The position numbers and the translations under genes were made by a program. The notes under the pieces are model-generated. The model searched no databases. It was not told where the DNA came from and saw nothing but the letters and a program-made list of their open reading frames with translations. A stretch of 64,000 nucleotides of DNA, from NCBI GenBank assembly GCA_900316305.1, contig ONCM01000005.1, positions 65,295 to 129,294 on the forward strand, given 5' to 3'. Below are positions 2,260 to 36,819 of the stretch, one piece after another; the first letter of the stretch is position 1; the number at the start of each line of letters is the position of its first letter. The DNA comes from an uncultured Bacteroidales bacterium (lineage in GTDB: Bacteria; Bacteroidota; Bacteroidia; Bacteroidales; WCHB1-69).

Positions 2260-2375
2260 TTACCACACCACCGTTAAACTCGTTTTTAACAGCAGACACT
2301 TCTTGCTGTTGTAAACATCCTCCTTTTGTAGCGCAGCAGAACTCGATTGCGCAGAAATATTCGGCCTGCAATCCT
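2260..2375 (-). pseudogene. Relic of the 3' end of a T9SS type-B CTD gene (same family as 7363..9612)
   Basis: It translates to 'YFCAIEFCCATKGGCLQQQEV..', compared with 'YFCAIEFRCATSSKKRQQLNTSVTVVR*' at the end of the 7363..9612 gene. The DNA aligns with a 15-nt insertion and a 1-nt frameshift, and TAA at 2260..2262 sits at the homologous stop position. Confidence 0.55.
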
Positions 2376-2395: not shown

Positions 2396-4081
2396 TTAGA
2401 TTTTATACAAATATATCTTCCAAAATGACTCTTTATTGGTAAAGTATCTCTCAAACGTCCATCCTAATTGTTCATAATTAAGAATAGGAACTGTAGAAAA
2501 AACATATTCACATCCCATTTTACGAAGTTGGTCTGTATCAACATTGAGACTATTGATGCTCGTGTTAATGTTTTTACCGAAAACATAGTGTTCGCCAAGT
2601 TCCGAAGAGAAAATATAGCATCGGCTACCCCAATTGTCGAAATAGTTCGATAATTCCTCGCTTTTAGTCAACTCATTTGCTATGATTTTTCTAAACTCAT
2701 GTTTGTAGGCCAAAGGATACACATTCCAATAACCATCAATACAATAGAAGCCGCTATATTGTGCTATAGCAGGATACATACCTATACTAGCAATTTTATA
2801 ATTCTTTTTAGGTCTGTTGATATACGTCCCTACTTCTTCAAAAAGAGACACATCAAAGAATTGTTTGAAAGTAGGTTCTTCCTGTTTGTGAAAAACATAT
2901 TTTTTAATATAAAAAGTGTATTGTTTTGTTTGGGAAAATGTTCCAATTAAAACCAACAAAACGAGTGTACCACACACCCATTTGCCAAACCTGTTTTTTA
3001 TAATATCCTGCAATAAATAAGCAAACAGTATTATCCATAATGTTGGAAGTAAAAAATATATCCTGTCAAACTGAAACTGTAAAAAGAGGTTTCCCCTGTC
3101 AAGGTAAGAGCATATGATACGATATATGAAGCAAAACACCACTATTGATATAATGGCGATAGAAATAAGCATGGGTTTGCTCCCTATTGTTTTATTTTTA
3201 CCCCATATATATAAGGCGGCAATAATAATAGGGATAGTAATTAATGCACCAGAATGATATTGAGTACGAAGGAATAATGAAATATGGTTTTTTATGATGG
3301 AAGTAATAGATACATTATATAAAAACTCTGTACGATGAGGTTGAATGTTAGATAGAGTAAAATAATCCATAAACAAGTGAAAATTTGTGACTATATAACA
3401 CATGCCCATTAATACCAAGCCTCCCAGAAAGAATTTGGGGATTGTTTTTTCTTTTTTCCATTTCAAAGCAAACAAAACAACAAGTACAAAACCAACAAAA
3501 ACACCTGAAAGTATCATATATGAAAAGAGACAGAAGAGTACTATTAAGCTATACGAAAAAATAATTCTTTTCTCTTCATTTAAGTTATAAAAAGCATAAA
3601 ATACAAGAGGGATACCCGCAGAAGAAATTCCAAGAATGGAGTAAAAGGGTATGCTGGCGAAACAAATAGCCGAGCAGAAACAGAGTACATTCTTATGTTT
3701 GGATTCAGAGTTTATCAATTTCTCGAGTAACAGAAACATTCCAACAAATGCTACAAAATGAACCAAAAAATCATTAATTACAATTGCCGAAAACAAAGGC
3801 AAATTGAATAACAGGGAATTAGTAATCCAATTAGACAAATCAAAACATGAGCGAGAAAGCCCTCCCATCACAGGTATATTGACAGAGTAATCAAAGAATG
3901 CATTCGCATTTGACAGCATTTTAAAATGGGATATATATGAATCTAAATAATCATGAATAAGAATGTAGCTGTCAGATCCTATAATTAAATACGGAATATA
4001 GCATATGAGAATAACTATACCCCCTAAAAGCATGTATTTTTTCTTGTTTGTCATTATTTTAATTTTCGATATTAACTTCAT
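2396..4081 (-). CDS. Multi-pass membrane protein with a C-terminal soluble domain (DUF6044-like; putative GT-C-type glycan transferase)
   Basis: 561-aa ORF with many hydrophobic segments. The N-terminal 'GSDSYILIHDYLDS' resembles my recollection of the DUF6044 family. The region is very AT-rich and lies downstream of a GtrB-like GT2. Confidence 0.55.
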   Translation of the reverse strand: MKLISKIKIMTNKKKYMLLGGIVILICYIPYLIIGSDSYILIHDYLDSYISHFKMLSNANAFFDYSVNIPVMGGLSRSCFDLSNWITNSLLFNLPLFSAIVINDFLVHFVAFVGMFLLLEKLINSESKHKNVLCFCSAICFASIPFYSILGISSAGIPLVFYAFYNLNEEKRIIFSYSLIVLFCLFSYMILSGVFVGFVLVVLFALKWKKEKTIPKFFLGGLVLMGMCYIVTNFHLFMDYFTLSNIQPHRTEFLYNVSITSIIKNHISLFLRTQYHSGALITIPIIIAALYIWGKNKTIGSKPMLISIAIISIVVFCFIYRIICSYLDRGNLFLQFQFDRIYFLLPTLWIILFAYLLQDIIKNRFGKWVCGTLVLLVLIGTFSQTKQYTFYIKKYVFHKQEEPTFKQFFDVSLFEEVGTYINRPKKNYKIASIGMYPAIAQYSGFYCIDGYWNVYPLAYKHEFRKIIANELTKSEELSNYFDNWGSRCYIFSSELGEHYVFGKNINTSINSLNVDTDQLRKMGCEYVFSTVPILNYEQLGWTFERYFTNKESFWKIYLYKI

Positions 4082-4112
4082 CCATTACAACATACAAAGG
4101 TTTCCCTTTTAC

Positions 4113-4211
4113 TTAATCAAAGACCCTGCCAATATAAATGCCCAAAATTTCCATTTGCATCATCAACAGGCCTCCGATGAACCAAATAAAGTTCTCGTTC
4201 AGTATGTGCTC
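4113..4211 (-). pseudogene. Relic of the C-terminus of a second GtrB/ArnC-like GT2
   Basis: The minus frame reads 'EHILNENFIWFIGGLLMMQMEILGIYIGRVFD*'. This parallels 'FLGGVQLLTVGILGEYIGELFDE' of the intact GT2 at 4254..5183. Confidence 0.45.
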
Positions 4212-4253
4212 ATATCATAAATGACACTTCTTAATTATTAAAACTATTCCAAC

Positions 4254-5183
4254 TTAAAGATTGACTTTTTCACTGATAATATATTCTGGACGATTTTTGG
4301 CCTCATCAAACAACTCTCCAATATATTCTCCCAAAATACCAACGGTAAGGAGTTGGACACCTCCAAGAAAAATGACAATGAAAAATATTGAGGACCAACC
4401 TGCCACAAAAGATCCAGATTTGATTATTACAAGGACGAGTGCAATAATAGCATACAACAAACTGATTAACAAAAATATACAACCTATCCAAATAGGCAGC
4501 ATTAATGGTTTATTAGAGAACGACAACAAACCAGTCTTTGCAAGTTTCATCATTTTTTTAAGTGGATACTTGGTCTCTCCAGCAAAACGCTCTTTGCGCT
4601 CATAATAACAAGGCATTTGCTTATATCCCATCCAACTAATTAACCCCCGAATGTATTTATTCTTTTCGTGCAAATTATTGAATTCATCTATTATGTTTCG
4701 GTCAATTAAACGAAAATCTCCTGTGTCAATGGGAAACTGCACCTCCGATACTTTATTGAGAAATCTGTAAAAATACTTGGCTGTTAAAAGTTTAAATCGG
4801 CTTTCTCCCTCTCTTTTCTTTCGGACCCCATAAACAACATTGGCTTTTTCCCGCTGTTGAATCTCCAACATGTCCAAAATAATTTCAGGTGGATCTTGTA
4901 AATCCGCATCAATAATAGCCGCCAAATTCCCATTACAATTATTTATTCCCGCTGTGACTGCACATTGATGACCAAAGTTTCGAGAAAAGCTAATGATTTT
5001 TACGAATTGATCCTTTTGAGATAATTGGAGAAGAATTGAGAAAGTTCGATCACGACTACCATCATTGACGAAAATCAATTCGTAGTCCATTTCGGTTTTT
5101 TTCATGACTTCCGACAATCGATTGTAGGTTTCTTGGATTACTAGTTCTTCGTTATAACAAGGGATTATTACGGATAATAACAT
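4254..5183 (-). CDS. Family-2 glycosyltransferase, GtrB/ArnC-like polyprenyl-phosphate sugar synthase
   Basis: 309 aa. It has 'VIIPCYNEE', 'DADLQDPPE' and two C-terminal TM helices ending in 'GILGEYIGELFDEAKNRP'. Confidence 0.8.
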   Translation of the reverse strand: MLLSVIIPCYNEELVIQETYNRLSEVMKKTEMDYELIFVNDGSRDRTFSILLQLSQKDQFVKIISFSRNFGHQCAVTAGINNCNGNLAAIIDADLQDPPEIILDMLEIQQREKANVVYGVRKKREGESRFKLLTAKYFYRFLNKVSEVQFPIDTGDFRLIDRNIIDEFNNLHEKNKYIRGLISWMGYKQMPCYYERKERFAGETKYPLKKMMKLAKTGLLSFSNKPLMLPIWIGCIFLLISLLYAIIALVLVIIKSGSFVAGWSSIFFIVIFLGGVQLLTVGILGEYIGELFDEAKNRPEYIISEKVNL

Positions 5184-5252
5184 ACAATAATTATTAAAAA
5201 AATATTAACATGTCAAAAATTACAGTTCTTCTAAATATACTTCATGGATTAT

Positions 5253-5726
5253 TTATCGAACACGAGTGATTGAAAGCAATCTCTCAACAAATTCGTGAAA
5301 CACGCCCCCCGCTTTTCTAGTGTCACCTTAGCTAATTCATGTATATATTCGGGTGCATAAAAAGGAGCACCTATCCAACAAACCTTTTGTAACAATCGAT
5401 ATCATTAATGTCATCGCCTACATTTGCAACCTAGTTTAAGCTAATATTCATATTATCGCATAATTCACTAGCGGTTTTAATTTGTCTTTTACGCCAACAT
5501 ACACGAAATCAATATTGATTATTTTGACACAACCTTGCACTATTGCTGTGTGCTCCCCAGTAATAATTCCCACAGGAATTCCTTCATGATGAGCAAAAAG
5601 GACACCGGTACTGTCATAAGTATTGAACTTTTTTAGTTCCACATTCGCTTCATCGTAACACATTCCACCGTCAGTCCACACCCCGTCAATGTCTGTCAGT
5701 ATCGATTTTAGAATTTTGTTCATCAT
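5253..5726 (-). pseudogene. KdsC-like HAD phosphatase, degraded
   Basis: The N-terminal 92 aa ('DIDGVWTDGG..KKFNTYD') are intact. The remainder ('VANVGDDINDI', 'IGAPFYAPEYIHELAKV', 'GGVFHEFVERLL') is spread over other frames, with in-frame TAGs and a G6 run. Confidence 0.65.
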
Positions 5727-5741
5727 TCAAGAATTTCGCGG

Positions 5742-5749
5742 CAAAGATA
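5742..5749 (-). promoter_or_regulatory. -7 promoter box (TATCTTTG)
   Basis: Plus strand reads caaagata, 16 nt upstream of ATG 5726. Confidence 0.45.
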
Positions 5750-5800
5750 AAATTTTTGTCATAAAATGATAATCCTAAAATGACAAAAAAACGGTAACAA

Positions 5801-7273
5801 TCATCCGAACCTCAATTTGGCTTCGTCAGGCTCCTCAAAGGCGTTGCAATAATTCAAATAATCCAACAGTTCCTGAAAGTTTTTTCCATATAGGGTGCTG
5901 CTGAAATGGTGGAGGTGAGTCATCACATTTATGTAGGGTTGCACAATTCTCTGACGGCTGCATTTCCTCAAAGCCAAAAGGTAATCCTCCCGGTAAACCG
6001 TCGGAACGATAATCTCTGACTCTTTAGCACGAAACAACTCCGAATTCATCATGATTCTGGCCAGACGTCCGTTGCCATCCTGGAAAGGATGCACTTCACT
6101 GATAAGGAACATCATCTATATGGCCTTAGCGATAGGGGAAGTGAGGGCACAATAATAGTTGAATCCGGCATCCAAAGTCCCTTGTACACGGTTCACATCC
6201 ACAAATTCAGTGTTTCCCGCACGATTGTTCTTGGTCTTGAAGTGCCCGGGATTCAATTCGGGACGGCCTTCCAACAAAACGGCGTGTCTACGACTGAGAA
6301 TCTCAAAAAACTCTTGGGATGAAGCGGGAAAAGCCTGCATTTCCATCCGGTTGGAGACCACATGGAATGTTCCCAATATGTCATGAGAATCCTCCGTCCT
6401 TTTGGGAATTGTGATTCCAGTCTCCACAATCTGGCGGGCTTCATCAACTGCAAATTCCGTACCTTCGATATAGTTGGAAAAATAGCTCTCAAAGAAAGCG
6501 ATATCAAGGTATTCGTTTTCCGTTTGTTCGGATATGGGTCTGGACAAAAAATGCTGACTCTGTAGCGCATCAAACAACTTCTCGAACAGTTCAACCCGTT
6601 TTTCATCGTAAGGAGTGCCAGCCGCTGCAGCCTTCACAACAGGGTCTGTGAGCACTTGCGAAGAATGTGTGTTCAGCAATGCCGAAATCAAAATGTTGAT
6701 TTTGGCAAATTCATTCGTCATACCCAGACGTTCAGCGGTTTCACGCAATGTATCCCTATACTGGATCAACTGTTCCTCACCTCCAGCGACCAAAACACTT
6801 TCCAACTTTTTCTCAATCAATGATATAGGAAGAACTTTTGAATCGTCACCTTGTTTGCGACTGGATTGCATATTTTCTAATACCCACCGGTACTCGCTGG
6901 CAATGAACATACGTCCATACGCCATATCTTGGATGTCAGCAGCAGGTCCGTTCATCAGATAAATCGTTATCCCTGGCAAGTCAGTTACTTTTCGATTATA
7001 TGTTCCTGTCAGATAGAATGTTCCTTTGGAAGTGACACGCATTTCGCATGCACTCCTATGGCTGATGACCGTATTAGGAAAACGCCAATTTAAGATGCTG
7101 AGAATGTTTCTTCTGACGATGATTTCCGGGCTATCTATCATATTAGGGGTATAGATTCGCGGAGCGATTTTGCGCAAACGGCTCAACCCCACCAGACGTG
7201 AAATTTGGTGAGAAACATCTGAATCGGATGATGCAAAAATTATTTCTTTATTTAAGTCCAATAATGGTTTCAT
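5801..7273 (-). pseudogene. Fic-domain (AMPylase-type) gene with an AbiEi-like N-terminal region, interrupted by an in-frame TAG at 6116..6118
   Basis: ORFs 6116..7273 and 5801..6115 are in the same frame, separated only by TAG. The inhibitory motif 'SNYIEG' (S/TxxxE[G/N]) lies upstream of the stop. The active site 'HPFQDGNGRLAR' lies downstream of it. Confidence 0.7.
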
Positions 7274-7350: not shown

Positions 7351-7362
7351 CAGCTTCCCTTC

Positions 7363-9612
7363 TCACCGCACCACCGTCACGCTTGTGTTCAACTGCTGTC
7401 GCTTCTTGCTGCTGGTGGCGCAGCGGAATTCAATGGCGCAGAAATAGACTCCGTCGGAAACATTGGCGGCATCCCAACTCAAGGATTCTTTGCTCTCCTG
7501 TCGGTAAACGCGCTTCCCCCAGCGGTCGAAGATTTCCATCTCCATGCTGAGGAAGTCGCCCTCCAGCTGCGGCTCAAACACGTCGTTGAACCCGTCGCCG
7601 TTGGGAGTGACTACGTTTGGTAGGTTCATCGTGCACGGCCTTCCATCGAAATGGGCATAGTTGTCCGTAGTGTCACATTCGGGTTGCAGACCGCCATACT
7701 GGGCAGCACCTTCCCCATTGTCGTTGACAACGATTTGCAATGGATAAGGGTTGTCAAACTGCTTCAGCTTAGTTTGGCTGATGAAGAGGATGATCGTAGC
7801 GCATTCGCCCGGCAGCAACCCTTGGGCGATTTCTTCCGCTTGTACCAGTTCGCCGGAAATCGTATATACGGAGACGTACATTGGCGGCGAGAATGCCATT
7901 TCCCCAGTGTTGCAAACCTCCATCTCCAAAGAAATCACATCACTTTCAAACTCCACAGACGGATCCCCTGTAATGGAGAGATTCGCGAGCAATGCAAACG
8001 GTCTTCCGTACTGGTCCAACTTGGTAGCCTGCTGCAGGAAGTTGTTGAAAGGCCGCCGCACCACGCCCTGTGGATCGGTAAAAGCAGTAGCGTTATCAAA
8101 CAACGGTTTCGACACCGTCAAGTCCTTATTGATATTCGTTACATTATACATATACTGGTTCCAGACGGATCGTGCGGGCGCCCAAGGGTGGATACCGCCG
8201 ATGACCCACAACTCTCCACCAACCCAGCCCAAACCACTATTCACCTTTCCGCAGGTCACGATTTCCGCCGCTCCATCGCCATTCACATCCGCCACCACGG
8301 GATACTCTTTCCATGTGCCGGCAGACATACTTTTGGCATATAGGTTGTAGAAGGATATCGTGTCGTCCCCGGTCAAATGGCTTTTGCCACTGCCGTTTAT
8401 GATGCGCAATTTGTCTTGGTCGCGATAGACGATTTCCATGATGCCGTCCTGGTTGAAGTCAAACAGGGTCATGGAGGTTTGTCCCGACTCGTCGGAATGC
8501 GTGGCCTGCCACTTGGTCTGCAAACCGATTTGCGGATTATACTTCATCGCCGTAATTCTGGAACTGCTCACGGGAGTTTTATAATCAAGATAAACAAACT
8601 CTAAGAAACCGTCTCCGTCAATATCGCCCACTAAGGGGTAACCGATGGTTTTGGCATAATGGCCGTGAACGAACAGAATGTTTTCATTTACAGGGTCGTA
8701 GGCATAAATGTACGCAGAATCTGTAATCTCAGATTGTGTGCCATCAATGACAACCATCACATCCAGTTGCCCATCAAGGTTGAAATCAGCAACGGCCACA
8801 TTACCGTCTTGGGGAATGCGGTCTGGGATGGTGATGGTCTTTATTTCCGTCACACTATTGAGGTTGACATCGGTACGACTGACAATGTTCACGTTATAGA
8901 TGGTATTACCACAAATGAGTTCGGGAAGGGAGTCTCCTAACACATTTGCAGCGAACGACATGGCGCAACGTCCTTTTTCATTGATAGAGCATCGCCAACT
9001 TCGCCCCATATTGCCACTTGCAGAGCCTGCACACAACCGCTTGAGCGTTGCCGCATCATAGATTGCGTTGCCTACATAAATCTCGGGCCAGCCGTCGTAG
9101 TTGAAGTCCGTTACCGAAATCATTCCTTCGCACGGCGTGTTCACATCTGAGGTGGCCAGTTGGTTGCCGAAGACGTCGTAGGAACGCAGCTTGTTGTCGT
9201 AACAATGGAGAACTATAGCACCTTGCATCCCACCATTGCCATCAGGATAACGAACCAACGCTATAGGGCCACCAAAACCTGCATAAATTCTTTGCGGAAG
9301 GTTGATGGTGCCAACCTGTTGCAGGTCAGTGCCCCGATAGATACCCACTTGTGTGGTGTAATGGTCGTTGGTAACGGTTTTCCCAGCTACAATCTCGGTG
9401 ATACCGTCCCCATCAATATCTCCTACTAGAGGCACATAGTAGCAGTGGATATTACTAGCCGAATGCAATACTTGAGCATCCCAAGGTTGCTGCAACACGT
9501 CTGTCGAGCAGTTCGCCTCCACCATGTTGTCGGGCAGCACAGTCTGCGCCTCCATTTTGATACAGAGACCTAATATGCAAATGAGAATCCCCAGTTTGAC
9601 AATGATTTTCAT
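7363..9612 (-). CDS. P1: secreted FG-GAP/VCBS-repeat beta-propeller protein with a T9SS type-B C-terminal sorting domain
   Basis: Signal peptide 'MKIIVKLGILICILGLCIKMEAQ'. Repeated Ca-loop-like motifs: VGDIDGDGITEIV, DFNYDGWPEIY, ADFNLDGQLDVMV, VGDIDGDGFLEFV, FDFNQDGIMEIV, ADVNGDGAAEIV. The C-terminus 'TPNGDGFNDVF..IFDRWGKRVY..VTVVR' is of the CHU_C/type-B CTD kind. Confidence 0.8.
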   Translation of the reverse strand: MKIIVKLGILICILGLCIKMEAQTVLPDNMVEANCSTDVLQQPWDAQVLHSASNIHCYYVPLVGDIDGDGITEIVAGKTVTNDHYTTQVGIYRGTDLQQVGTINLPQRIYAGFGGPIALVRYPDGNGGMQGAIVLHCYDNKLRSYDVFGNQLATSDVNTPCEGMISVTDFNYDGWPEIYVGNAIYDAATLKRLCAGSASGNMGRSWRCSINEKGRCAMSFAANVLGDSLPELICGNTIYNVNIVSRTDVNLNSVTEIKTITIPDRIPQDGNVAVADFNLDGQLDVMVVIDGTQSEITDSAYIYAYDPVNENILFVHGHYAKTIGYPLVGDIDGDGFLEFVYLDYKTPVSSSRITAMKYNPQIGLQTKWQATHSDESGQTSMTLFDFNQDGIMEIVYRDQDKLRIINGSGKSHLTGDDTISFYNLYAKSMSAGTWKEYPVVADVNGDGAAEIVTCGKVNSGLGWVGGELWVIGGIHPWAPARSVWNQYMYNVTNINKDLTVSKPLFDNATAFTDPQGVVRRPFNNFLQQATKLDQYGRPFALLANLSITGDPSVEFESDVISLEMEVCNTGEMAFSPPMYVSVYTISGELVQAEEIAQGLLPGECATIILFISQTKLKQFDNPYPLQIVVNDNGEGAAQYGGLQPECDTTDNYAHFDGRPCTMNLPNVVTPNGDGFNDVFEPQLEGDFLSMEMEIFDRWGKRVYRQESKESLSWDAANVSDGVYFCAIEFRCATSSKKRQQLNTSVTVVR
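7385..7427 (-). repeat. 43-nt block shared with 12245..12287
   Basis: 42 of 43 nt are identical. Here the block encodes 'RCATSSKKRQQLNT' inside the P1 CTD. Confidence 0.8.
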
Positions 9613-9624
9613 GTTGTGTGCGAT

Positions 9625-12252
9625 TTAGAGCACGGTAACAATGCCTTTCGTTGTAAAATATTTTCCAAATGAATTCGAATAATGAATCACATACTGATAA
9701 ACATTGTCGTAGAACGTTTTCCCTTTGACTTCCCCATGCCAACAGAAATTCTTGTCGGTGGAATAAAACACCATCTCCCCCCAGCGGTTGAAAATCACTA
9801 TCTCGAAATCATTGATCTGATTCTGAATTCTTTCAGGAAGGAAAAAACCGTCGTTCAACCCATCGGATTTTGACGGAGTGATGGCATTAGGAAGGTACAA
9901 GGTGATTTCTGTTGCAGAAACCATGATTGTGACATGTATGACACTGTCACAACCATATTCGGTTTGGAAAGCAATGGAGGTGTCTATGCGACTTCCGCTT
10001 TCCAACAAACTCTCACTTAGGAATATTCCATGACGGTCGTAGGCTGTTCCTTCTGGAATAGTTTCTGTATAATGCTGATCATATTCCGGATGTACTCGCA
10101 ACTTCAAGACAATCACACTGTCACACGCACCAACTTCATATATCCTTTCATAAAAGAACGTACCAGCCGACTGCGTTTCATCAGCTACAATATTGAAATT
10201 GTCATCAGAATAAGTTTCACGCACACATATATCGGCAATTACAGTATCTCTAGGAATGTTACAGGGGTTCGCAGGAAAACAGAAAAAGTTGTCAGTGGTA
10301 TCGCATTCCTCCTGCTGTCCGCCGTTTTGTGCCACCCCAGTTCCATTATCATTAATCGCTATCACAATTGTCTCCAGTCCTGGGAAAGCAAGTATCTCTT
10401 CGTCTGTGAACTGGGTCGTAATTGTCAGGCAATTATCCACCGTCAGCGAGGCATAAATTTCTTCCGTTCGAATAATTGGCCCATGAAACGAATCCGCGTA
10501 ATACGTGATACTGAAAGGATCGTTTAAAGTCTTTCCACCTGTGTTGCAGAATTTGAAAACGTATGTAAACATCCCATTTTCGTATGTCATACTAGTATCC
10601 AATGTGGCGGTAACATTCATGAGTCGGGAAAAAGGCCGACCGTACTGGTCGAGCGTAGTAGCCTGTTGTAGAAAGTTGTTGAACGGCCGACGCACCACAC
10701 CCTGCGGATCGGTGAAAGCTGTAGAGTTGTCGAACAAAGGTGTCGGTATCGTCAAATCCTTGTTGATATTCGTTACATTATACATGTACTGGTTCCAGAC
10801 AGAACGCGCAGGCGCCCATGGATGTACACCACCAATGACCCACAATTGTCCTCCAACCCAACCCAAACCGCTGCTCACCTTTCCACAGACCACGATTTCC
10901 GCCGCACCATCACCATTCACATCCGCAACTACGGGATATTCCTTCCAAGTGCCGGCGGACATGCTTTTCGTGTATAAGTTGTAAAACGGTATGGTGTCGT
11001 TACCCGTCTTGTGACTTTTACCACTGCCATTGATTATGCGCAGATTGCTCTCATCTCGATAGACAATCTCCATGATGCCGTCCTGGTTGAAGTCGAACAA
11101 AGTCATGGAAGTTTGACCAGATTGATCTGTATGCGAAGCCTGCCATTGGTTTTGGATCCCAGAAGCAGGATTGAATTTCATAGCCGTGATTCTGGCGGAA
11201 CTCACCGGTTGTTGGTAATCAATGTATATGAATTCCAAAAAGCCGTCGCCATCAATGTCTCCGACCATCGGATATCCAATAGTTTTTGCATATTTGCCAT
11301 GAGTGAACAGAATGTCTTCCGTCACAGGGTCGTATGCGTAAATGTAGGCAGAGTCTGTGATTTCGGACTGTGTGCCGTCAATGACGACCATCACGTCTAA
11401 TTGTCCATCGAGATTGAAATCCGCGACGGCCACATTTCCATCTTGAGGTATACGAGAAGGTATGGCAATCGTTTTGAGTTCAGCAATGCTGTTAAGAGAG
11501 ACATCTGTGCGACTGACAATGTTCACGTTATAGATAGTGTTTCCACAGATAAGTTCGGGAATGGAGTCTCCCAGCACGTTTGCGGCAAAAGACATAGCGC
11601 AACGACCGTGTTCATTAATGGAGCATCGCCAGCTTCGCCCCATGTTGCCACCTACAGGACCCGCACACAGACGTTTGAGCGTTGCCGCATCATATATTGC
11701 GTTACCGATATAGATTTCCGGCCAACCATCATAGTTGAAATCCGTCACCGATATCATTCCTTCACATGGAGTATTCACATCGGAGGTCGCCAAAAGATTG
11801 CCATTAATGTCGTATGAACGCAGTTTGCTGTCGTAGCAATGCAATACAATGGTTCCTTGCATTCCACCATTTTCAGTCGGATAGCGTACCAAAGCCATAG
11901 GTCCACCATAACCTGCATATATTTTTTGCGGAATATTGATAGTGCCGATTTGTTGCAGGTTTGTTCCGCGGTAAATTCCTACTTGGGTGGTGTAATGGTC
12001 ATTGGATGTTGACTTTCCTGCCACTATCTCGACAACACCATCCCCATCAATATCACCTACTAAAGGTACATAATAGTTATGAATGTCGTTGGCAGAATAC
12101 AACACATGGGCATCCCACGGCTGCCCTTCCGCCTCCGTCGAACAGTCCGCCTCCACCATGTTGTCGGGCAGACTACTTTGCCCCGAGACCTGCATAAGGA
12201 ACGACATGCATATCAGCAATATGATTATGCATGACTCCTTTCTCGTGTTCAA
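9625..12252 (-). CDS. P2: FG-GAP beta-propeller protein with two GxCDSVI modules and a T9SS type-B CTD
   Basis: 875-aa ORF with a TTG start in the track (start uncertain). The propeller is about 85% identical to P1 by eye. The C-terminus 'LPNAITPSKSDGLNDGFF..IFNRWGEMVF..GIVTVL' is a type-B CTD. Confidence 0.8.
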   Translation of the reverse strand: MNTRKESCIIILLICMSFLMQVSGQSSLPDNMVEADCSTEAEGQPWDAHVLYSANDIHNYYVPLVGDIDGDGVVEIVAGKSTSNDHYTTQVGIYRGTNLQQIGTINIPQKIYAGYGGPMALVRYPTENGGMQGTIVLHCYDSKLRSYDINGNLLATSDVNTPCEGMISVTDFNYDGWPEIYIGNAIYDAATLKRLCAGPVGGNMGRSWRCSINEHGRCAMSFAANVLGDSIPELICGNTIYNVNIVSRTDVSLNSIAELKTIAIPSRIPQDGNVAVADFNLDGQLDVMVVIDGTQSEITDSAYIYAYDPVTEDILFTHGKYAKTIGYPMVGDIDGDGFLEFIYIDYQQPVSSARITAMKFNPASGIQNQWQASHTDQSGQTSMTLFDFNQDGIMEIVYRDESNLRIINGSGKSHKTGNDTIPFYNLYTKSMSAGTWKEYPVVADVNGDGAAEIVVCGKVSSGLGWVGGQLWVIGGVHPWAPARSVWNQYMYNVTNINKDLTIPTPLFDNSTAFTDPQGVVRRPFNNFLQQATTLDQYGRPFSRLMNVTATLDTSMTYENGMFTYVFKFCNTGGKTLNDPFSITYYADSFHGPIIRTEEIYASLTVDNCLTITTQFTDEEILAFPGLETIVIAINDNGTGVAQNGGQQEECDTTDNFFCFPANPCNIPRDTVIADICVRETYSDDNFNIVADETQSAGTFFYERIYEVGACDSVIVLKLRVHPEYDQHYTETIPEGTAYDRHGIFLSESLLESGSRIDTSIAFQTEYGCDSVIHVTIMVSATEITLYLPNAITPSKSDGLNDGFFLPERIQNQINDFEIVIFNRWGEMVFYSTDKNFCWHGEVKGKTFYDNVYQYVIHYSNSFGKYFTTKGIVTVL
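12132..12241 (-). repeat. 110-nt 5' module (leader plus signal peptide) shared with 14822..14931
   Basis: 109 of 110 nt are identical by direct comparison. The block encodes 'KESCIIILLICMSFLMQVSGQSSLPDNMVEADCSTE'. Confidence 0.85.
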
Positions 12253-12287
12253 TTGCTGTCGCTTCTTGCTGCTGGTGGCGCAGCGGA
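12245..12287 (-). repeat. CTD-derived 43-nt block in the P3-P2 spacer
   Basis: Same sequence as 7385..7427. It fills the 38-nt gap between the P3 stop (12291) and the P2 TTG (12252), and is in frame with P2. Confidence 0.8.
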
Positions 12288-12290
12288 GCG

Positions 12291-14963
12291 CTAGAGCACG
12301 GTGATAGTGCCTTTTTTGATGAACGTCTTGCCAAACGGATTCGAGTAATGAATAACGTACTGATACACATTGTTATAGAATATCTTTCCCTTGACTTCCC
12401 CGTGCCAGCAGAAGTTTTTGTCATTGGAATAGAAGACCATCTCACCCCAACGGTTAAAAATCACTATCTCAAAATCATTGATTTGATTCTGAATACTTTC
12501 AGGAAGAAAAAAGCCATCGTTCAGACCGTCTGATTTTGAAGGGGTAATGGCATTGGGGAGGTACAGAGTGATTTCCGTTGCAGAAACCATGATTGAAACA
12601 TGTATGACACTGTCACAACCATATACGCTTTGCAAAGCAATGGAGGTGTCAATGCGACTTCCGCTTTCCAATAAGCTCTCACTCAGGAATATTCCATGAC
12701 AGTCGTATGCTGTTCCTTCTGGAATAGTTTCTGTATAATGCTGGTCATACTCCGGATGTACTCGCAACTTCAAGACAATCACACTGTCACACGCACCCAC
12801 TTGAAAAATCCTGCTAAAATAATAAGTACCAGCGACTTCTGTTTCTGTGGCGGGTATATTAAAGTTCTCATCCAAATATGATTCATGTACGCAAACGTCC
12901 GCTGTGACGGTGTCTTTGGGGATGTTGCAGGGATTGACACTGAAGATGAAAAAGTTGTCGGTAGTGTCGCACTCTTCCTGCTGTCCGCCATTTTGGGCCA
13001 CACCGGTCCCGTGGTCGTTCAGCGCCACCACGATATTTTCGAGCTCGGGAATTCCCATCAGATCCTCTTCAGCAAATTGCACCTGCTGTGTAATGCAATT
13101 GCCAGGCAGCAGCGGGGCGGAAACCAGCTCGGTGTTCACCACGGTTCCTCCGTAGTTGTTGGCATAATAGGTGATATAGAACGGGGCGGTAAGTACTTGG
13201 CTACCAGTATTGCAGAATTGGAAGGTGTAAGTGAAAACTCCGTTTTCGTAGGAAAAGGAGGTGTCTGTAGAGGCGGAAATGTTCGCCAGCGGCATGAACG
13301 GTCGCCCGTACAAATCAAGTGTAGTGGCTTGCTGGAGGCAATTGTTGAACGGACGGCGTACCACGCCCTGCGGATCGGTGAAGGCAGTGGCGTTGTTAAA
13401 CGATGTAGTGGGCACGGTGAGGTCCTTGTTGATGTTCGTCACGTTGTACATGTACTGGTTCCACACGGGCCGCGCGGGTGCCCAAGGCTGTCCCGAGGAC
13501 TTGAAGATGTTCAGCTTCGAGCTGCCCACGGAGACGATTTCCGCCGCCCCGTCGGCATCCACGTCAGCAATGACTGGATACTGCATGATGGTGGTCTCGC
13601 TGTAGGGGAATGTGCTCAGCACATACATCGCCACCGTGTCGTTGTGGGTGATGTGGCTTTTGCCGCTGCCGTTCACGATCTTCAGTGTGGACTGGTCGCA
13701 GATAATCAGTTCCAAAATGCCATCTTGATTAAAGTCGAATGCGGTGAAACTGTTGGAAAACGAATCTTCGTCGGGGTGCATGCCCCAAATCATCGAAAAA
13801 GCCCCAGTAGTTGCATTGTATGTGTATGCCTGTATCCTGTTGTTTGTGTTGGTAGATCCGTTCTGTATCACTATCTCCATCGAACCGTCGTTGTTAATGT
13901 CGGCTATCAAGGGGATGCTTTTGCCGGAATTCGTGGTGCTGATATTGAGAGCAGGACTGACTGTTTCGTTGTGTACATCCCACACGTAACAATACACGTT
14001 CCCATAATGGCTGTCCGTGTTTCTGACGCTGATGAACACGTCCAGATGCCCATCCTGATTGAAATCCGCCACTTGAGTGTGTCCATCTGCAGGCACGGAA
14101 GCGGGTGGGGCGGTCTGCTTCCACAAAGTGGTGGAATTCCCCGATGTGCCATTGGTGTTGGTGATGGAAACTTGATAGATTTCGTTGCCGAGTATCAGTT
14201 CCGGATGCCCGTCTTCCGTCAGGTCGGCGGCAAATGGGGATGACAGTTTCCGATGCGTGAACTGGCTGTAGTGCGCATACGACAAACCTGCGTTCGAGGT
14301 GGCAGCCTCTGCCAACAGCTTGCCTGTCTCTGCGTTGTAGATTTTATTACGCACATATACTTCCGGGTGTCCGTCACCGTTAAAGTCCACGAAACTCACA
14401 TTCACGGCGTAGTTGTTAGAGCCAGAAGCATAGGTCTCGTCCGATACCCAGAAGGGCGTATTGGGTGTCGCCGAAGTGATGTCGTAGGCCCGCAACCGGT
14501 TATCGTAGCTCGCCACCACAATCAGTCCTTTGCCGCTGGAGGTGCGTACCAGCCCGTAAGCGGCAGCGTCATACTCCGACACCGGCGAATCCATTGTCAC
14601 CGTCGTCTTCAGTTGGTGCGTCACCCCGTCGTACACCAACAGTTCAAATCCCACATTCCCGATATACCCATCGTTCACATAATGCGACTGACCGGCGAGA
14701 GAAAAGCAGACAATCTCTGGATGCCCGTCACCGTCAAGGTCGCCCACCAAAGGAATGTTCAAGTTAGATACGATTGCCGATGATGACCAGGCATTCTCCA
14801 CACCCCAAGTCATCGATTCCACCTCCGTCGAGCAGTCCGCCTCCACCATGTTGTCGGGCAGACTACTTTGCCCCGAGACCTGCATAAGGAACGACATGCA
14901 TATCAGCAATATGATTATGCATGACTCCTTTACTTTTCCCCTTTCACCGCACACGCTATCCAC
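12291..14963 (-). CDS. P3: divergent FG-GAP beta-propeller protein with two GxCDSVI modules and a T9SS type-B CTD
   Basis: 890-aa ORF with a GTG start in the track (uncertain). Motifs include VGDLDGDGHPEIV, FVDFNGDGHPEVY, ADFNQDGHLDVF, IADINNDGSMEIV, FDFNQDGILELI, ADVDADGAAEIV. The last ~200 aa are more than 90% identical to P2. Confidence 0.8.
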   Translation of the reverse strand: MDSVCGERGKVKESCIIILLICMSFLMQVSGQSSLPDNMVEADCSTEVESMTWGVENAWSSSAIVSNLNIPLVGDLDGDGHPEIVCFSLAGQSHYVNDGYIGNVGFELLVYDGVTHQLKTTVTMDSPVSEYDAAAYGLVRTSSGKGLIVVASYDNRLRAYDITSATPNTPFWVSDETYASGSNNYAVNVSFVDFNGDGHPEVYVRNKIYNAETGKLLAEAATSNAGLSYAHYSQFTHRKLSSPFAADLTEDGHPELILGNEIYQVSITNTNGTSGNSTTLWKQTAPPASVPADGHTQVADFNQDGHLDVFISVRNTDSHYGNVYCYVWDVHNETVSPALNISTTNSGKSIPLIADINNDGSMEIVIQNGSTNTNNRIQAYTYNATTGAFSMIWGMHPDEDSFSNSFTAFDFNQDGILELIICDQSTLKIVNGSGKSHITHNDTVAMYVLSTFPYSETTIMQYPVIADVDADGAAEIVSVGSSKLNIFKSSGQPWAPARPVWNQYMYNVTNINKDLTVPTTSFNNATAFTDPQGVVRRPFNNCLQQATTLDLYGRPFMPLANISASTDTSFSYENGVFTYTFQFCNTGSQVLTAPFYITYYANNYGGTVVNTELVSAPLLPGNCITQQVQFAEEDLMGIPELENIVVALNDHGTGVAQNGGQQEECDTTDNFFIFSVNPCNIPKDTVTADVCVHESYLDENFNIPATETEVAGTYYFSRIFQVGACDSVIVLKLRVHPEYDQHYTETIPEGTAYDCHGIFLSESLLESGSRIDTSIALQSVYGCDSVIHVSIMVSATEITLYLPNAITPSKSDGLNDGFFLPESIQNQINDFEIVIFNRWGEMVFYSNDKNFCWHGEVKGKIFYNNVYQYVIHYSNPFGKTFIKKGTITVL
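14822..14931 (-). repeat. 110-nt 5' module shared with 12132..12241
   Basis: See 12132..12241. Confidence 0.85.
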
Positions 14964-14993
14964 ACGCTATCCGTACGATAGCCACACGCTATC
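14950..14993. repeat. 11-nt-register direct repeats CACACGCTATC (x3) plus a partly inverted unit
   Basis: Copies are at 14950, 14961 and 14983. The unit at 14972..14982 (cgtacgatagc) forms a GCTATC/GATAGC hairpin with its neighbour. The array overlaps the GTG start given in the track for P3. Confidence 0.7.
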
Positions 14994-15225
14994 CGAACGC
15001 ATTGGAAATGTGGCGCAACTTTTGTCATAAAACGACAAAAAAACAACCCCTGAATTTTTCACAACGAATCAACGAAATTTGATCTGATCCGCCGACTTTC
15101 TTCGAAATCATCAATTATTTTTTTACAATTATTTGTTAATATATTTTCACATAAATTCTCAATATGCTGATTTTCAACGAGAAAATTTTTCTTCAAAAAG
15201 TCTTGACAAGAGCGAAATCTTATTG

Positions 15226-15233: not shown

Positions 15234-15254
15234 CACCGTAAAAAAACTATTATT

Positions 15255-16081
15255 ATGTTCGAACCATGTAAATATTATAGCCCCGTGACAGACGTCACCT
15301 TCCGGAAAGTTTTCGGAGAAAACATCGACCTGGCCACCAGCCTGCTCAACGCCTTCCTCCCGCTGGAAGAGGGAAGGACCATCACCGACCTCCGCTATCT
15401 GCCTCCCGAACTGATGCCGGAGACGCCTGCCCGAAAACACAGCATCGTCGATGTGCACTGCACCGACTCCGCCGGCGCATCCTTCCTCGTCGAGATGCAG
15501 CTCAACTGGGACACCGACTTCTTCCAGCGCGTCTTCTTCAACGCCTCCAAGGCATACGTCCGACAACTCAAGGATGGGGAGCAATAGACCTGCACAAGGG
15601 ACTCGACGAATGGTACCACCCCTACAAATTCGTCCATATCTACCACACCGACCGTGTGTTCGAAGGACTCCAGATCGTCTTCGCCGAAATGGAGAAATAC
15701 GAGAAGCTGGCGGTAAAAGGGAACACCAAGATGGACCTGTGGATGCGCTACTTCACCGAGATGCGAGAGAAAACACGCGTGCCTGCACCTGAATTGCTCG
15801 CCGACCCCGATATAGCCAAGGCCATCAACCTGCTGGAGGTCATCAACTACAACGAGGCGGAACAGTACCTCTACGACAAATACTGGGACGCGGTCAGCAT
15901 CGAAGCCACCTGGAAGGGCATCGGACGGCGCGAAGGGGAGAAAGAAGGGATGGAGAAAGGACGCGAACTAGAAAAACGTTTCCTCGCACGCAATATGCTC
16001 GCTGACGGCCTCGAACCGACAGTGGTAGCAAAGTACACAAAGCTGTCCGAGGAAGAACTCCAGAAAATGATGCGGGAATAA
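15255..16081 (+). pseudogene. Rpn-family recombination-promoting nuclease / PD-(D/E)XK putative transposase, broken
   Basis: The N-terminal part is 'YSPVTDVTFRKVFG..IVDVHC..FLVEMQLNW', ending at TAG 15587. The continuation 'EWYHPYKFVHIYHTDRVFEGLQIVFAEMEKY' is in another frame (ORF 15656..16081). The gene carries an internal deletion plus a frameshift. Confidence 0.65.
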
Positions 16082-32836: not shown

Positions 32837-34420
32837 TTACTGATTGGTAATCACAATCTTACGGTCTTTTGCTGCTTTCAAGCCGAAGACTGTTTCGCGC
32901 ACTTCGTCGGTCTCAAAAGCGTGATTCACAGCCCCTTCAGGGAAAATTTGTAGATAAAGACCTGATTTTTCACCCGTTATATATGGAGATAACCGAGCGT
33001 CATCCGCCTTGCGAAGATAGTTCAGCAAACTGACAATTCTTCGTGAGGATAAATGCTTGTTATAGTCGCTGTTATGCAACGGACTGGCAAATCCGCTGAT
33101 GACCAGATTCACCGTATCACCGTTCAACATCGCTTCGGTAAGATACTGCTGCAGAAGCTGTAAGCGTGCGTAACCCGTCTGCACAGAGTCGCGCATAAAG
33201 CCTGCCACCGCGTACATTGCCTTGCGCTGTTCTTCTCCAGTCAGTCCTTCTCCAGATTTGTTAACATATCCTTGGATATCACCGATATACGCATTGTATA
33301 GTTCCAAATAATCCTTATCGGTAGTGTCAGAAACAGACTTCGGGTCGGGACAGTCATTTTGGAAGTACAACGTTATCGGCAACACAGAGGCTATTTTTTC
33401 ATGAATGTCCGGCTTGTGTGGCAACACAACCGTATCTTTCTGAGGCTTAGACCATTCCACATAGAAGATGTCGTTGCAGCAGGTATCTTCATCCACCATA
33501 TCGCGGTGAGGTCTGTTGGAGGAGAGAAAACCGCTCTTACTACATTGATTTACAACAAAATAGAAGTCGTTATACACCGAATTAAAGGGTCGAGGAAGGT
33601 GTTTTACCGGTTGCCAACGACCCAAAGCACCCTCGCTACAAAAAATGTCGAAATCGCCTATAGGGTGATGCTCGTCCGAGCTGAAATAGAGCATGTTAGA
33701 ATGTTTATCATAGAAAGGGGTAACCTCATCCCCATCGGTGTTGATGGCCGGTCCGAGGTTGACGGGCGACTGGAAATGCCCATTCTTGCGGATGGCATAC
33801 CAAATATCCGATTTTCCATACCCACCGGGACGATTGGAGGAGAAGTAAAGTACCTCGTAATCAGCATATTCCACCAAACAAGGCTGCATGGAAGAGTAGT
33901 CGCCCGGATTGATAACCGAGGATAATTTTTTAGGTTTCGTCCAGTTGCCACCACGCCGTTCCGATTCCCACAAATGGCAATGGAGATCCCCCTCCCCTGT
34001 TCGCTCACAACGGGTCAACATCATTCGCTGACCGTCCTCGCTCAAGCAGAAATTGCTGTTGAAATAGTTGGGGTGGTTAATGTTCCGAGGTAATGGTTTC
34101 GCAGTTGCAAACCGTTCTTCCGACAACATTCGGGATTCGTAAATATAGCAGTACCAATTCGTTTCAAAGAAATGTTCCGCATCCTCCGCCGCATCATTGC
34201 GCATAGCGGTAAAAAGAAAGGTGGAATCCGGCAGCAACTTTCCAGCATATTCCGAAAAGGAGCTGTTGATTGACGACGGTAAAGGATCTATTGTCACGAT
34301 GATAGAATCCGTTATGGGCAATACTGTTACAACATTGCTCTGCGCCCTCGCAGAAACCCACAAGAACAGCGTCACAATGAAAACACATAAAGCCTTTATT
34401 ATAAACGATTTATCATTCAT
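32837..34420 (-). CDS. PorE-like protein: TolB/PD40-type beta-propeller repeats plus an OmpA_C-like domain
   Basis: Signal peptide present. PD40-like motifs are 'YFSSNRPGGYGKSDIWY' and 'LYFSSDEHHPIGDFDIF'. The C-terminal OmpA-like region is 'ISGFASPLHNSDYNKHLSSRR'. It lies directly downstream of the PorP/SprF-like ORF. Confidence 0.6.
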   Translation of the reverse strand: MNDKSFIIKALCVFIVTLFLWVSARAQSNVVTVLPITDSIIVTIDPLPSSINSSFSEYAGKLLPDSTFLFTAMRNDAAEDAEHFFETNWYCYIYESRMLSEERFATAKPLPRNINHPNYFNSNFCLSEDGQRMMLTRCERTGEGDLHCHLWESERRGGNWTKPKKLSSVINPGDYSSMQPCLVEYADYEVLYFSSNRPGGYGKSDIWYAIRKNGHFQSPVNLGPAINTDGDEVTPFYDKHSNMLYFSSDEHHPIGDFDIFCSEGALGRWQPVKHLPRPFNSVYNDFYFVVNQCSKSGFLSSNRPHRDMVDEDTCCNDIFYVEWSKPQKDTVVLPHKPDIHEKIASVLPITLYFQNDCPDPKSVSDTTDKDYLELYNAYIGDIQGYVNKSGEGLTGEEQRKAMYAVAGFMRDSVQTGYARLQLLQQYLTEAMLNGDTVNLVISGFASPLHNSDYNKHLSSRRIVSLLNYLRKADDARLSPYITGEKSGLYLQIFPEGAVNHAFETDEVRETVFGLKAAKDRKIVITNQ

Positions 34421-34439: not shown

Positions 34440-34522
34440 TAAACTCTAAACCCTAAACTCTAAACCCTAAACTCTAAACTCTAAACTCTAAACTTCAATA
34501 ACCAATAACCAATAACCATTAC
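34440..34522. repeat. Heptamer arrays filling the porP-like/porE-like spacer: (TAAACYC)x8 then CTTCAATAACC..CCATTAC
   Basis: Sequence: taaactc taaaccc taaactc taaaccc taaactc taaactc taaactc taaactt caataac caataac caataac catta. Confidence 0.85.
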
Positions 34523-35529
34523 ATAATGTCATACGGGCACGGTTCCTTCCCCGCTCGAGTAATCGTTCGTTTCTTGAAAATATAGGAGATAGCGAGTTCC
34601 ATGCCGCCGCGACCGTGCGTGGCCACCACGAAAGGAGATACGTTCACGTCGTAGGCGAGGGAAAAACGGAGGTTCTGCCAACTGACGAACCCGTTGATAA
34701 TCAAGGCATCATTCCAACGATAGAAAAGTCCGCCACCAAGAGTGAACAGAGTAGTATAGCTGTTTTTCTTCTTGAAATATTCCACATTACAGCCGAGCAA
34801 ATACTCACTAAAGGTACGCTGCCAAGAGGCGTAGAGCATTGGCGACAAGGATAATTCGCGGTTGAGGGCGATTTGGGAGTAGAAATGAGCCGTGTATTTG
34901 ATAGGCAAACGGGCATTGCTCTCATCGAAACCATAAAAGGGCATATTGATGTGGGACGCACTCACTGCCAACCTGAAAAGGGTGGTCTTGGAGGGCAAGA
35001 ATCCCCAAAACGCACCTACCCCAAAATCGGGATAGAGCCGTTGAAAAATTTCAAAATTCTCACCAGCAGGCAGATAGGAATAGAACATTCCATCTAAAAA
35101 CTGGTTGTCCCAAGTGCCCTCATCGAAATCGAAGTGGTTGTTGATGATGCCGCCATAGAGTCCCAGACCGATTTTGTGGCGACTGTGCCGACCAAGATTT
35201 TTGATGTACGACAACGAGAGTATTGCCTGCACGGAGCTGTATCGCACATCACCAGATCTGTCCCCGTTGAAGGTGAGTCCGATACCCAATAGTTCCTGCC
35301 GCCGATGATTCTTATAGATCGCACCATCGACTTCCGCACCCATAGTCATGAACGGCTTTGTCACCGAAAGCCACTGCTCCCGCATAATGACGCCGCCACG
35401 CACCACACCATCGAACGCCGCTGTCAACGCAGGGTTCACCCCGGTCGGATTGGCATAAAACTGGGAGAAATGATAATCTTGGGCAAAAGTTATCTTAAAA
35501 AAAAAAGTCAGTGCCGTCAGCAACAGCAT
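34519..35529 (-). CDS. PorP/SprF-family T9SS outer-membrane protein (no separate upstream stop; in frame with rarA)
   Basis: Internal ATG at 35529 gives the signal peptide 'MLLLTALTFFFKITFAQ'. This is followed by 'DYHFSQFYANPTGVNPALTA', the family N-terminal signature. Confidence 0.65.
   Translation of the reverse strand: MLLLTALTFFFKITFAQDYHFSQFYANPTGVNPALTAAFDGVVRGGVIMREQWLSVTKPFMTMGAEVDGAIYKNHRRQELLGIGLTFNGDRSGDVRYSSVQAILSLSYIKNLGRHSRHKIGLGLYGGIINNHFDFDEGTWDNQFLDGMFYSYLPAGENFEIFQRLYPDFGVGAFWGFLPSKTTLFRLAVSASHINMPFYGFDESNARLPIKYTAHFYSQIALNRELSLSPMLYASWQRTFSEYLLGCNVEYFKKKNSYTTLFTLGGGLFYRWNDALIINGFVSWQNLRFSLAYDVNVSPFVVATHGRGGMELAISYIFKKRTITRAGKEPCPYDIM
35497..35506. repeat. A10/T10 homopolymer inside the PorP-like signal peptide
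   Basis: The coding strand reads ACT TTT TTT TTT AAG. This is the only homopolymer of 9 nt or longer that I found in the window. Confidence 0.9.
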
Positions 35530-36801: not shown

Positions 36802-36819
36802 TACATTATTTTTGGAGCG

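Follow-up and report, generated by a model that had tools for sequence, protein, structure and literature searches.

Tandem FG-GAP propeller genes with type-B sorting domains and mosaic similarity in an uncultured rumen Bacteroidales bacterium

Three tandem genes and their protein modules

The DNA analysed here, referred to as the window, is a stretch of 64,000 nucleotides (nt) from an uncultured Bacteroidales bacterium of the lineage WCHB1-69 (assembly GCA_900316305.1, contig ONCM01000005.1, positions 65,295 to 129,294). It carries three co-directional minus-strand open reading frames (ORFs) for predicted type IX secretion system (T9SS) cargo proteins. They are named in transcription order as A, B and C and correspond to P3, P2 and P1 of a preliminary description made from the letters of the sequence. 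The ORF coordinates (Table 1) agree with the spacers given there, 38 nt between A and B and 12 nt between B and C. The similarity between the three genes is mosaic. That this mosaic arose by recombination, through segmental exchange and gene conversion, is well supported: breakpoints, incongruent trees, uneven synonymous divergence (dS), gene numbers that differ between strains and a gene fossil in a spacer all agree with the explanation that the preliminary description had put forward.

Each ORF consists of a leader, an FG-GAP propeller, a conserved block, a mid domain and a C-terminal domain (CTD) of type B. A and B are of a long type, with two 'GxCDSVI' cysteine (Cys) modules each. C is of a short type that has none of these modules and carries a mid domain of its own. 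All three proteins scored above the Pfam cut-off of 27 bits for CHU_C (PF13585; C 55.7, B 48.1 and A 48.4 bits). With the NCBIfam model of the type-B CTD, TIGR04131 (cut-off 35 bits), C and B reached 38.7 and 35.1 bits, and A fell short by 0.3 bits at 34.7. FG-GAP_3 (PF13517, 73-107 bits) and FG-GAP (PF01839, 52-70 bits) were found above the Pfam cut-offs in A, B and C. The combination of propeller and type-B CTD that had been claimed for each gene was therefore recovered by the domain models. Sec signal peptides were judged by eye without a predictor. The N-terminus of C reads MKIIVKLGILICILGLCIKMEA followed by QTV, and the intact alleles of A and B start with M(N M)MRHDIHPKESCIIILLICMSFLMQVSG followed by QSS, with Gln at +1. 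Gln at this position after the signal peptide is known as the Q-rule of Bacteroidetes (PMC5837995).

An AlphaFold2 model of B was built on 59 homologues and reached a mean predicted local distance difference test (pLDDT) of 75. Residues 49-474 form a propeller of about eight four-stranded sheets, mostly at pLDDT 75-95, the blade number being taken from the DSSP strand list and not from coordinates. The preliminary description had left this count to structure prediction. An immunoglobulin (Ig)-like sandwich follows at 547-660, then two small beta-sandwich Cys modules at 669-779 and the CTD at 813-874. In a Foldseek search of the PDB with this model, the top match was Bap1 of V. cholerae (6MLT, E 3e-15, target TM-score 0.52), followed by many integrin alpha chains (E ~1e-11); designed 8-10-blade 'Cake' propellers were also found. 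A profile search of PDB sequences gave Bap1 as its single match (6mlt_A, E 2.8e-14, query residues 353-501). Loops of a putative Ca2+-binding type, D-x-[DN]-x-[DN]-G-x-x-[DE], were counted by regular expression and occur six times each in A, B and C. Their columns are invariant across the 59 homologues.

Among the scored candidates, 1194 homologues were found at E <= 1e-5. Nearly all come from metagenome-assembled genomes (MAGs) of uncultured "Bacteroidales bacterium" from the rumen or gut of goat, sheep, yak, cattle, deer and horse, and their annotations are limited to "gliding motility-associated C-terminal domain" or "VCBS repeat-containing protein". A literature search for FG-GAP together with T9SS found no publication describing such an architecture. 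The core of the family is the propeller plus the conserved block, to which distant relatives add extensions of up to ~4800 amino acids (aa) after the core. Two propellers in one ORF are present in the relatives P0004, P0038, P0070 and P0120 (1370-1500 aa) and at 5176-9351 of the related locus L010. These ORFs consist of a C-like short gene joined in frame to an A-like long gene, which indicates that other gene orders and read-through fusions occur in the array.

Exchange and homogenisation of modules

To compare the genes module by module, each protein was split at shared motifs. In the propeller, B and C are 84.8% identical in aa sequence (~78% in nt), in line with the ~85% estimated by eye in the preliminary description, and the propellers of A and B share only 42%, so that their description as highly diverged also held. 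The conserved block (PWAPAR...LQQAT), 55-70 aa in length, had been called invariant. Its copies are in fact 93% (B-C) and 87% (A-B) identical in aa sequence, and despite this high value the nt identity is just ~77-83%. In the mid domain the order is reversed (B-C 39%, A-B 60%). A and B share 81.5% in the Cys modules and 89% in the CTD, compared with 34% between the CTDs of B and C. Towards the C-terminus, identity between A and B is 90% for the final 150 aa, 85.5% for the final 200 aa and 75.5% for the final 330 aa. The earlier value of more than 90% over the final ~200 aa was thus too high.

The leaders of A and B share a block in which 111 of 112 nt match (109 of 110 had been reported), including an exact run of 99 nt that covers the signal peptide (14833-14931 = 12143-12241). 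By permutation, a longest identical run of ~15 nt was expected and the maximum was 32. Divergence is not uniform along the genes. A two-breakpoint maximum likelihood segmentation of 1040 informative sites raised the log-likelihood from -1037.6 to -873.9 and placed two clear switches at alignment codons 49-51 and ~592. The youngest conversion tract in the tails of A and B contains identical runs of 47, 35, 20 and 27 nt, and its nt identity is 92-96% compared with 68% in the flanks.

The age of the modules was assessed from dS and from nonsynonymous divergence (dN). Between A and B, dS is 0.12 in the leader and saturated in the propeller. The propellers of B and C show a dN of 0.094 and a saturated dS of ~3.7 (dN/dS 0.025). 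A recent conversion between B and C as the source of their 85% propeller identity was rejected for this reason; the identity reflects old conservation. Other propeller comparisons gave dN/dS of 0.02-0.2. The preliminary description had suggested that the propeller is being diversified, which these values do not support. The propellers are a few ancient, conserved types under strong purifying selection and not a hypervariable ligand-binding surface. Variation comes via reassortment, gain and loss of propeller types, and the leader and tails are homogenised. Comparison of single genes between strains also gave uneven dS. For gene A of the window and of L081, dS is 0.035 in the leader, 0.49 in the propeller, 1.2 in the block, 0.66 in the mid domain, 0.08 in the Cys modules and 0.65 in the CTD. 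For gene B of the window and its counterpart in L078, dS drops from 1.35 for the propeller to 0 for the CTD.

About 90 related loci, designated by L-numbers, were compared in total, all of them MAGs or metagenome contigs. All four combinations of propeller type (A or BC) and tail type (long or short) are present (L005, L006, L018 and L092). In L005 and L006 the array consists of A1-long, A2-short, B-long and C-short, four genes in tandem, and L018 has one long and one short gene of the A type. Synteny with the window is complete in L002 (POT-OMP-S41-AmpP-A-B-C-PolysacSyn2-DegT). Modules are combined by the same logic in over 15 species, taken from separate studies.

Neighbour-joining trees separate the history of the tails from that of the propellers. 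In the nt tree of the tail (second Cys module and CTD), long-type genes group by genome and not by propeller type, with 100% bootstrap for the window, L002, L004 and L005. This clustering indicates concerted evolution. In L004 the last 393 nt of two long genes are 100% identical, with flanks at 61-79%. The propeller tree is decoupled from tail type, as it joins L003-long with L008-short (99%), L001-short with L005-long (99%) and L002-long with L002-short (100%). Gene C of the window groups by its propeller with L005_4 (100%) and by its tail with L001_2 and L005_2A (100%). The propeller of gene A falls into the A2 clade (91-99%), whose members bear short tails in L005, L018 and L092, and its tail clusters with that of gene B of the window. 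A further observation concerns the spacer between A and B, which represents the 3'-terminal ~68 nt of a short-type gene with its stop codon (FRCATSSKKRQQLNTSVTVVR*), cut down in the window by an absent segment of 87 nt. The spacer of L080 matches the 3' end of C at 79 of 96 aligned nt, and the same piece lies 5' of B in L078 and L005. This fossil identifies A as a chimera. The simpler possibility that A is an intact A1-long gene next to a deletion of A2-short was rejected on the position of its propeller in the A2 clade (91-99%, by neighbour-joining p-distances only).

The array also differs between close strains, as the preliminary description had suggested comparing. Among strains with at least 97% identity to the window in B and C, the array has two, three or four genes. 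L091 and L092 carry A1long-A2short-B-C, the window and L080-L083 carry A-B-C with a single chimeric A, and L079 carries B-C. In L079 A is absent and the flank upstream of A joins B directly at the shared leader block. The leader of A does not vary across strains, and that of B is between ~96% (L081, L082) and 100% (L080, window) identical to it, a gradation that ongoing conversion would produce.

Table 1. Coordinates of the array and of associated features in the window
Feature	Position	Strand	Remarks
Gene A	12291..14963	-	890-aa ORF, long type
Gene A, leader	14790-14963	-	
Gene A, A-type FG-GAP propeller	13488-14789	-	
Gene A, conserved block	13323-13487	-	
Gene A, Ig-like mid domain	12927-13322	-	
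Gene A, two Cys modules	12570-12926	-	
Gene A, type-B CTD	12294-12569	-	
Gene B	9625..12252	-	875-aa ORF, long type
Gene B, leader	12109-12252	-	
Gene B, BC-type propeller	10822-12108	-	
Gene B, conserved block	10657-10821	-	
Gene B, mid domain	10261-10656	-	
Gene B, Cys modules	9904-10260	-	
Gene B, type-B CTD	9628-9903	-	
Gene C	7363..9612	-	749 aa, short type, without Cys modules
Gene C, leader	9475-9612	-	
Gene C, BC-type propeller	8188-9474	-	
Gene C, conserved block	8023-8187	-	
Gene C, own mid domain	7633-8022	-	
Gene C, second-class type-B CTD	7366-7632	-	34% identical to long-type CTD
Shared leader/signal-peptide block, A copy	14820..14931	-	111/112 nt = 12130-12241
Shared leader block, B copy	12130..12241	-	junction of the A-less L079 allele
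Breakpoint 1	14813..14817 (B 12123-12127; C ~9490)	-	closest pair changes from A=B to B=C
Breakpoint 2	13252..13254 (B 10586-10588; C 7952-7954)	-	closest pair changes from B=C to A=B, just past conserved block
Youngest A/B tail conversion tract	12598..12797 (B partner 9932-10131)	-	second Cys module
A-B 'spacer' and nominal TTG start of B	12242..12290	-	short-type gene-end fossil
Second short-type CTD 3'-end fossil	2290..2370	-	directly upstream of polysaccharide-synthesis gene PolysacSyn2
43-nt segment absent from window	15587		inside PDDEXK_2/Rpn-like gene; keeps gene intact in L080
56-nt segment absent from window	14931/14932		upstream of A; bears TATCTTTGCCGC promoter box and A ATG
87-nt segment absent from window	12241/12242		short-type fossil end, promoter box TATCTTTGCCGC and B ATG
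Orphan PorP/SprF-family gene	34519..35547	-	PF11751 106 bits; TIGR03519 140 bits, cut-off 90.55
PorE-like / CHU_0125-like PD40 protein	32837..34420	-	E 2e-42 to 2e-45, partial, below full-length cut-offs

Promoter segments, secretion genes and surroundings

An independent assembly (L080/L084) shows zero substitutions relative to positions 3378-23852 of the window (20.5 kb) and contains three extra segments (Table 1). The absent 56-nt and 87-nt segments share their right edge. In the intact allele, the true N-terminus of both A and B is MNMMRHDIHPKESC... When the segments are restored, the block shared by A and B comprises 175 exact nt (186/187 overall) and represents a complete promoter-leader cassette. 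The intact allele was found in all other contigs examined (L078-L085 and L090-L092). In JGI metagenomes it had three matches, and the deletion-junction allele had none. The missing segments could reflect indel differences within the population or an artefact of assembly. In either case, the GTG and TTG codons at which A and B begin in the window are not native, and the spacers of 12 and 38 nt are partly a product of the absent segments. Long genes normally have a promoter each, and C, 12 nt downstream of B, is presumably co-transcribed with it.

Elsewhere in the window, the motif TAnnTTTGCCGC, a longer version of the -7 promoter box of Bacteroidota, is enriched upstream of genes. It has 17 matches compared with 4.6 expected, a number that no shuffle reached (for example 5738, 19741, 29870, 32161, 48279 and 50454). 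No match lies between 7363 and 15500. A scan of 7000-15500 for sigma-70 promoters and terminators found none above the shuffled expectation, a scan ill-suited to Bacteroidota promoters, and the generic pattern TAnnTTTG-N20-ATG was uninformative. Right upstream of the promoter-leader cassette of A, GGATAGCGTGTG occurs three times at ~14940..15000 on the minus strand, two copies in direct tandem, with the related unit GGCTATCGT between the first copy and the second. The repeats vary slightly among strains (L079, L081). Similar palindromes (TTTTGTC...TTTTATGACAAAA) are located at ~15040-15070 and ~5760-5800 on the minus strand, where they precede promoter regions, one upstream of A and one downstream of a Fic pseudogene. 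They could serve as terminators or regulatory hairpins.

The next neighbour of A is a divergent, truncated PDDEXK_2 gene of the Rpn family of recombination-promoting nucleases/transposases (15281..16078, plus strand). It is intact in L080 and L082 (289 aa, HTH_Rpn_C) and absent from the syntenic L002. On the other side of the array, a segment at 2396..7273 has a GC content of 0.33-0.36, compared with ~0.47-0.52 elsewhere, and contains DUF6044, a GT2 glycosyltransferase, frameshifted KdsC-like remnants and the Fic pseudogene. The Fic-domain gene (5801..7273, minus strand) has an in-frame TAG at 6116-6118, just ahead of the HPFxDGNGR motif. The codon is TAT (Tyr) in L005 and L006, which identifies the TAG of the window as a nonsense mutation. 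In these two loci an intact Fic gene lies within the array, between A1-long and A2-short. PolysacSyn2 comes directly after the array in L002 and L005. The second gene-end fossil of the window, at ~2290-2370, appears to mark an ancestral junction between C and PolysacSyn2 that was later split by the low-GC segment.

The preliminary description had considered it unusual for type-B cargo that no PorP/SprF-like gene is adjacent. It is true that none lies immediately beside the triad, where the Fic pseudogene follows C. The unusualness was overstated, as no related locus has such a gene within 10 kb: a tblastn search with the PorP-like protein of the window found no match in 79 related loci including flanks of up to 10 kb. 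The absence of an adjacent PorP is the norm for this propeller family. In F. johnsoniae, 9 of 12 type-B substrates have a porP/sprF-like gene directly downstream and 3 are orphans (PMC12618676). These orphans (Fjoh_1123, Fjoh_1720, Fjoh_4934) have a single shuttle in common, Fjoh_1677 (PMC12618676). In the window, an orphan porP/porE-like pair is located ~20 kb from the triad, where a gene whose PD40-repeat product partly matches models of PorE and of OmpA-like CHU_0125 lies directly downstream of a porP-like gene. The PorP/SprF part (aa 446-732) forms one uninterrupted ORF with a RarA/MgsA AAA+ ATPase (aa 1-425) at 34519..36822 on the minus strand, and the same 760-aa ORF was called in the independent assemblies L086 and L087. 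PorP may start internally (MLLLTALTFFFKITFAQ). The core genes porK/L/M/N and sov were not found within the 64-kb window. A 707-aa protein at 60442..62565 on the minus strand has a type-A CTD of the T9SS (Por_Secre_tail, 48 bits), which shows that the genome uses both the type-A and the type-B class of CTD.

Interpretation and alternative explanations

Taken together, it seems probable that the locus is an array in which paralogous genes for T9SS type-B cargo lie in tandem and evolve by module exchange, and that its products are surface adhesins or glycan-binding proteins. The proteins would be exported by the Sec pathway and then by the T9SS, as judged from related systems (PMC9143113, PMC12618676). 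A PorP/SprF-type protein encoded elsewhere, possibly by the porP/porE-like pair at 32.8-35.5 kb, could extract them and anchor them to the surface. The propellers may bind a glycan or another surface ligand in a Ca2+-dependent way, in the manner of Bap1 or integrin alpha, and the two CTD classes possibly use different shuttles or destinations. The array's basic unit is a promoter-bearing long gene with a short gene 12 nt after it. Paralogues recombine at three homology anchors: in the promoter-leader cassette, in the conserved block and in the tails. Gene conversion homogenises leaders and tails within genomes, and old propeller types are reassorted, duplicated or deleted. Gene A of the window is a chimera of this kind, an A2-lineage propeller with a long tail in place of a short one, of which 68 nt survive.

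Several points weigh against this interpretation. The proposed function is drawn solely from resemblance of fold and domains. The most conserved block (residues 478-546 of B) was modelled at a pLDDT below 50, and Pfam searches at E <= 10 with the isolated conserved block, both mid domains and the Cys modules found no family; the only hint was CARDB for the mid domain of C, at a non-significant E of 0.13. The neighbour-joining trees were built on p-distances from saturated sequences. Repeat-driven misjoins could imitate some of the structural alleles, notably the one on the 4-kb contig L079. Finally, the PorP-like gene, at a distance of ~20 kb, is no more than a candidate for the shuttle or anchor.

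Comparison with known systems places the proteins between several families. Like Bap1/RbmC (6MLT), they are secreted bacterial proteins with a propeller of about eight FG-GAP/VCBS blades and Ca-type loops. However, identity to Bap1 is ~15%, the beta-prism lectin insertion is missing, and the phylum is different. The proteins of the window also add the conserved block, the Ig-like domain, the Cys modules and the T9SS type-B CTD. Bap1 of Vibrio is secreted via the type II secretion system. They resemble the integrin alpha ectodomain in having Ig-like 'leg' domains after an FG-GAP propeller that is N-terminal and contains Ca2+ loops. The blade number of integrin alpha is seven instead of the probable eight found here, and the likeness is at the level of the fold only, with 9-10% identity. 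In addition, the proteins of the window lack a beta-subunit partner, a transmembrane segment and an I-domain. Known type-B cargo (SprB, Fjoh_3952 and the orphans Fjoh_1123/1720/4934 of F. johnsoniae, and PG1035 of P. gingivalis) has the same C-terminal CHU_C/TIGR04131 domain and also comes from Bacteroidota with PorP/SprF-family genes. The three orphans of F. johnsoniae lack an adjacent porP/sprF gene, as do the genes of the window. On the other hand, the passenger is an FG-GAP propeller that is unrelated to the SprB repeats, and two CTD classes with 34% identity occur in adjacent genes. The host is an anaerobic rumen Bacteroidales without evidence of gliding, in which secretion of the cargo is predicted from sequence. 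Tandem multigene families of adhesins and outer membrane proteins are similar in that conserved 5' and 3' anchors flank a variable centre, the ends evolve in concert and the copy number is polymorphic. In contrast to these families, the central cassettes at this locus are few, ancient and under purifying selection (dN/dS 0.02-0.2) and not hypervariable, and neither an archive of silent cassettes nor a dedicated recombinase was identified.

Instead of adhesins, the genes might encode secreted enzymes or proteins that capture plant polysaccharides, with a catalytic or carbohydrate-binding propeller. The organism comes from the rumen, and FG-GAP/VCBS propellers are found in some carbohydrate-active proteins. 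The strong purifying selection would fit a defined ligand or substrate, and the weaker Foldseek matches include a GH43 enzyme and the sensor propeller of BT4663. Nevertheless, Pfam and NCBIfam revealed no catalytic family, the best matches in sequence and fold are the adhesins Bap1 and integrin alpha, and genes of a polysaccharide utilization locus (SusC/SusD) are not adjacent. We therefore consider this function unlikely.

Another explanation would be programmed phase or antigenic variation at high frequency, with recombination at dedicated sites, namely the 187-nt promoter-leader cassette and the conserved block. Within a population, cells would turn expression on or off or swap propeller cassettes, possibly aided by the adjacent Rpn-family PD-(D/E)XK nuclease. 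This would explain why the window and L080 have no substitutions over 20.5 kb and yet differ by three indels, two of which remove the promoter box and the ATG exactly. It would also account for close strains with two-, three- and four-gene alleles and for the PDDEXK_2/HTH_Rpn_C gene beside A in the window, L080, L081 and L082. However, this gene is not shared by the syntenic L002, no invertase or inverted repeats were noticed, and there is no microhomology at the edge of the deletion upstream of A. The deletion junction is absent from the JGI metagenomes, where the intact allele occurs three times, as it does in every other ENA contig examined, and the indels may be assembly artefacts. In addition, the propellers of the paralogues are synonymously saturated, which means that exchanges are rare on the time-scale of generations. 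Programmed variation thus appears rather improbable. A related and similarly doubtful idea is that the long and short pair forms a functional unit that shows one propeller type via two CTD classes and hence via two PorP-type shuttles or at two surface destinations, that the 187-nt cassette serves as a portable module for expression and recombination, and that its precise loss upstream of A and B acts as an OFF switch within the population. If this were true, it would mean recombination-driven phase or cassette variation of T9SS surface proteins in gut Bacteroidales.

The mosaic and the strain differences might also be due to chimeric contigs, formed when metagenomes were assembled over repeats. 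Every sequence is a MAG or a metagenome contig, the MEGAHIT contig L085 ends exactly at the leader repeat, L079 is just 4 kb long, and the window has its unexplained absent segments. Yet the order A-B-C is found at 100% identity in the independent L080/L084 and again in L081-L083, this module pattern is repeated in over 15 species, drawn from different studies, and most breakpoints lie in regions that are too diverged to mislead an assembler. An origin of the whole pattern in assembly is therefore very unlikely. It is least credible of all, and close to excluded by our data, that the mosaic reflects unequal constraint on genes that were duplicated once and never recombined: purifying selection does keep the conserved block and the LPDNMVEADC motif in all copies, and the similarity of the B and C propellers is indeed conservation (dS saturated), but dS is itself mosaic, there are exact runs of 99 nt and of 393 nt, each of the four module combinations occurs, tails group by genome and propellers do not, and gene-end fossils are present.

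The reading as an exchanging array of surface protein genes does not alter the current understanding of T9SS or of gene conversion. It describes a fairly ordinary case of a known kind of surface-family evolution. Members of this uncharacterised family number in the hundreds in rumen and gut Bacteroidales, and the locus may help in annotating such genes and shows why MAG assemblies break or err there. The two CTD classes on the same passenger provide a basis for testing the specificity of CTDs for their shuttles. For the family itself, the locus represents a well-sampled natural case of type-B surface proteins that are built from an exchangeable promoter-leader, propeller, block, stalk and CTD class, with a gene number that varies at one locus between near-identical strains.

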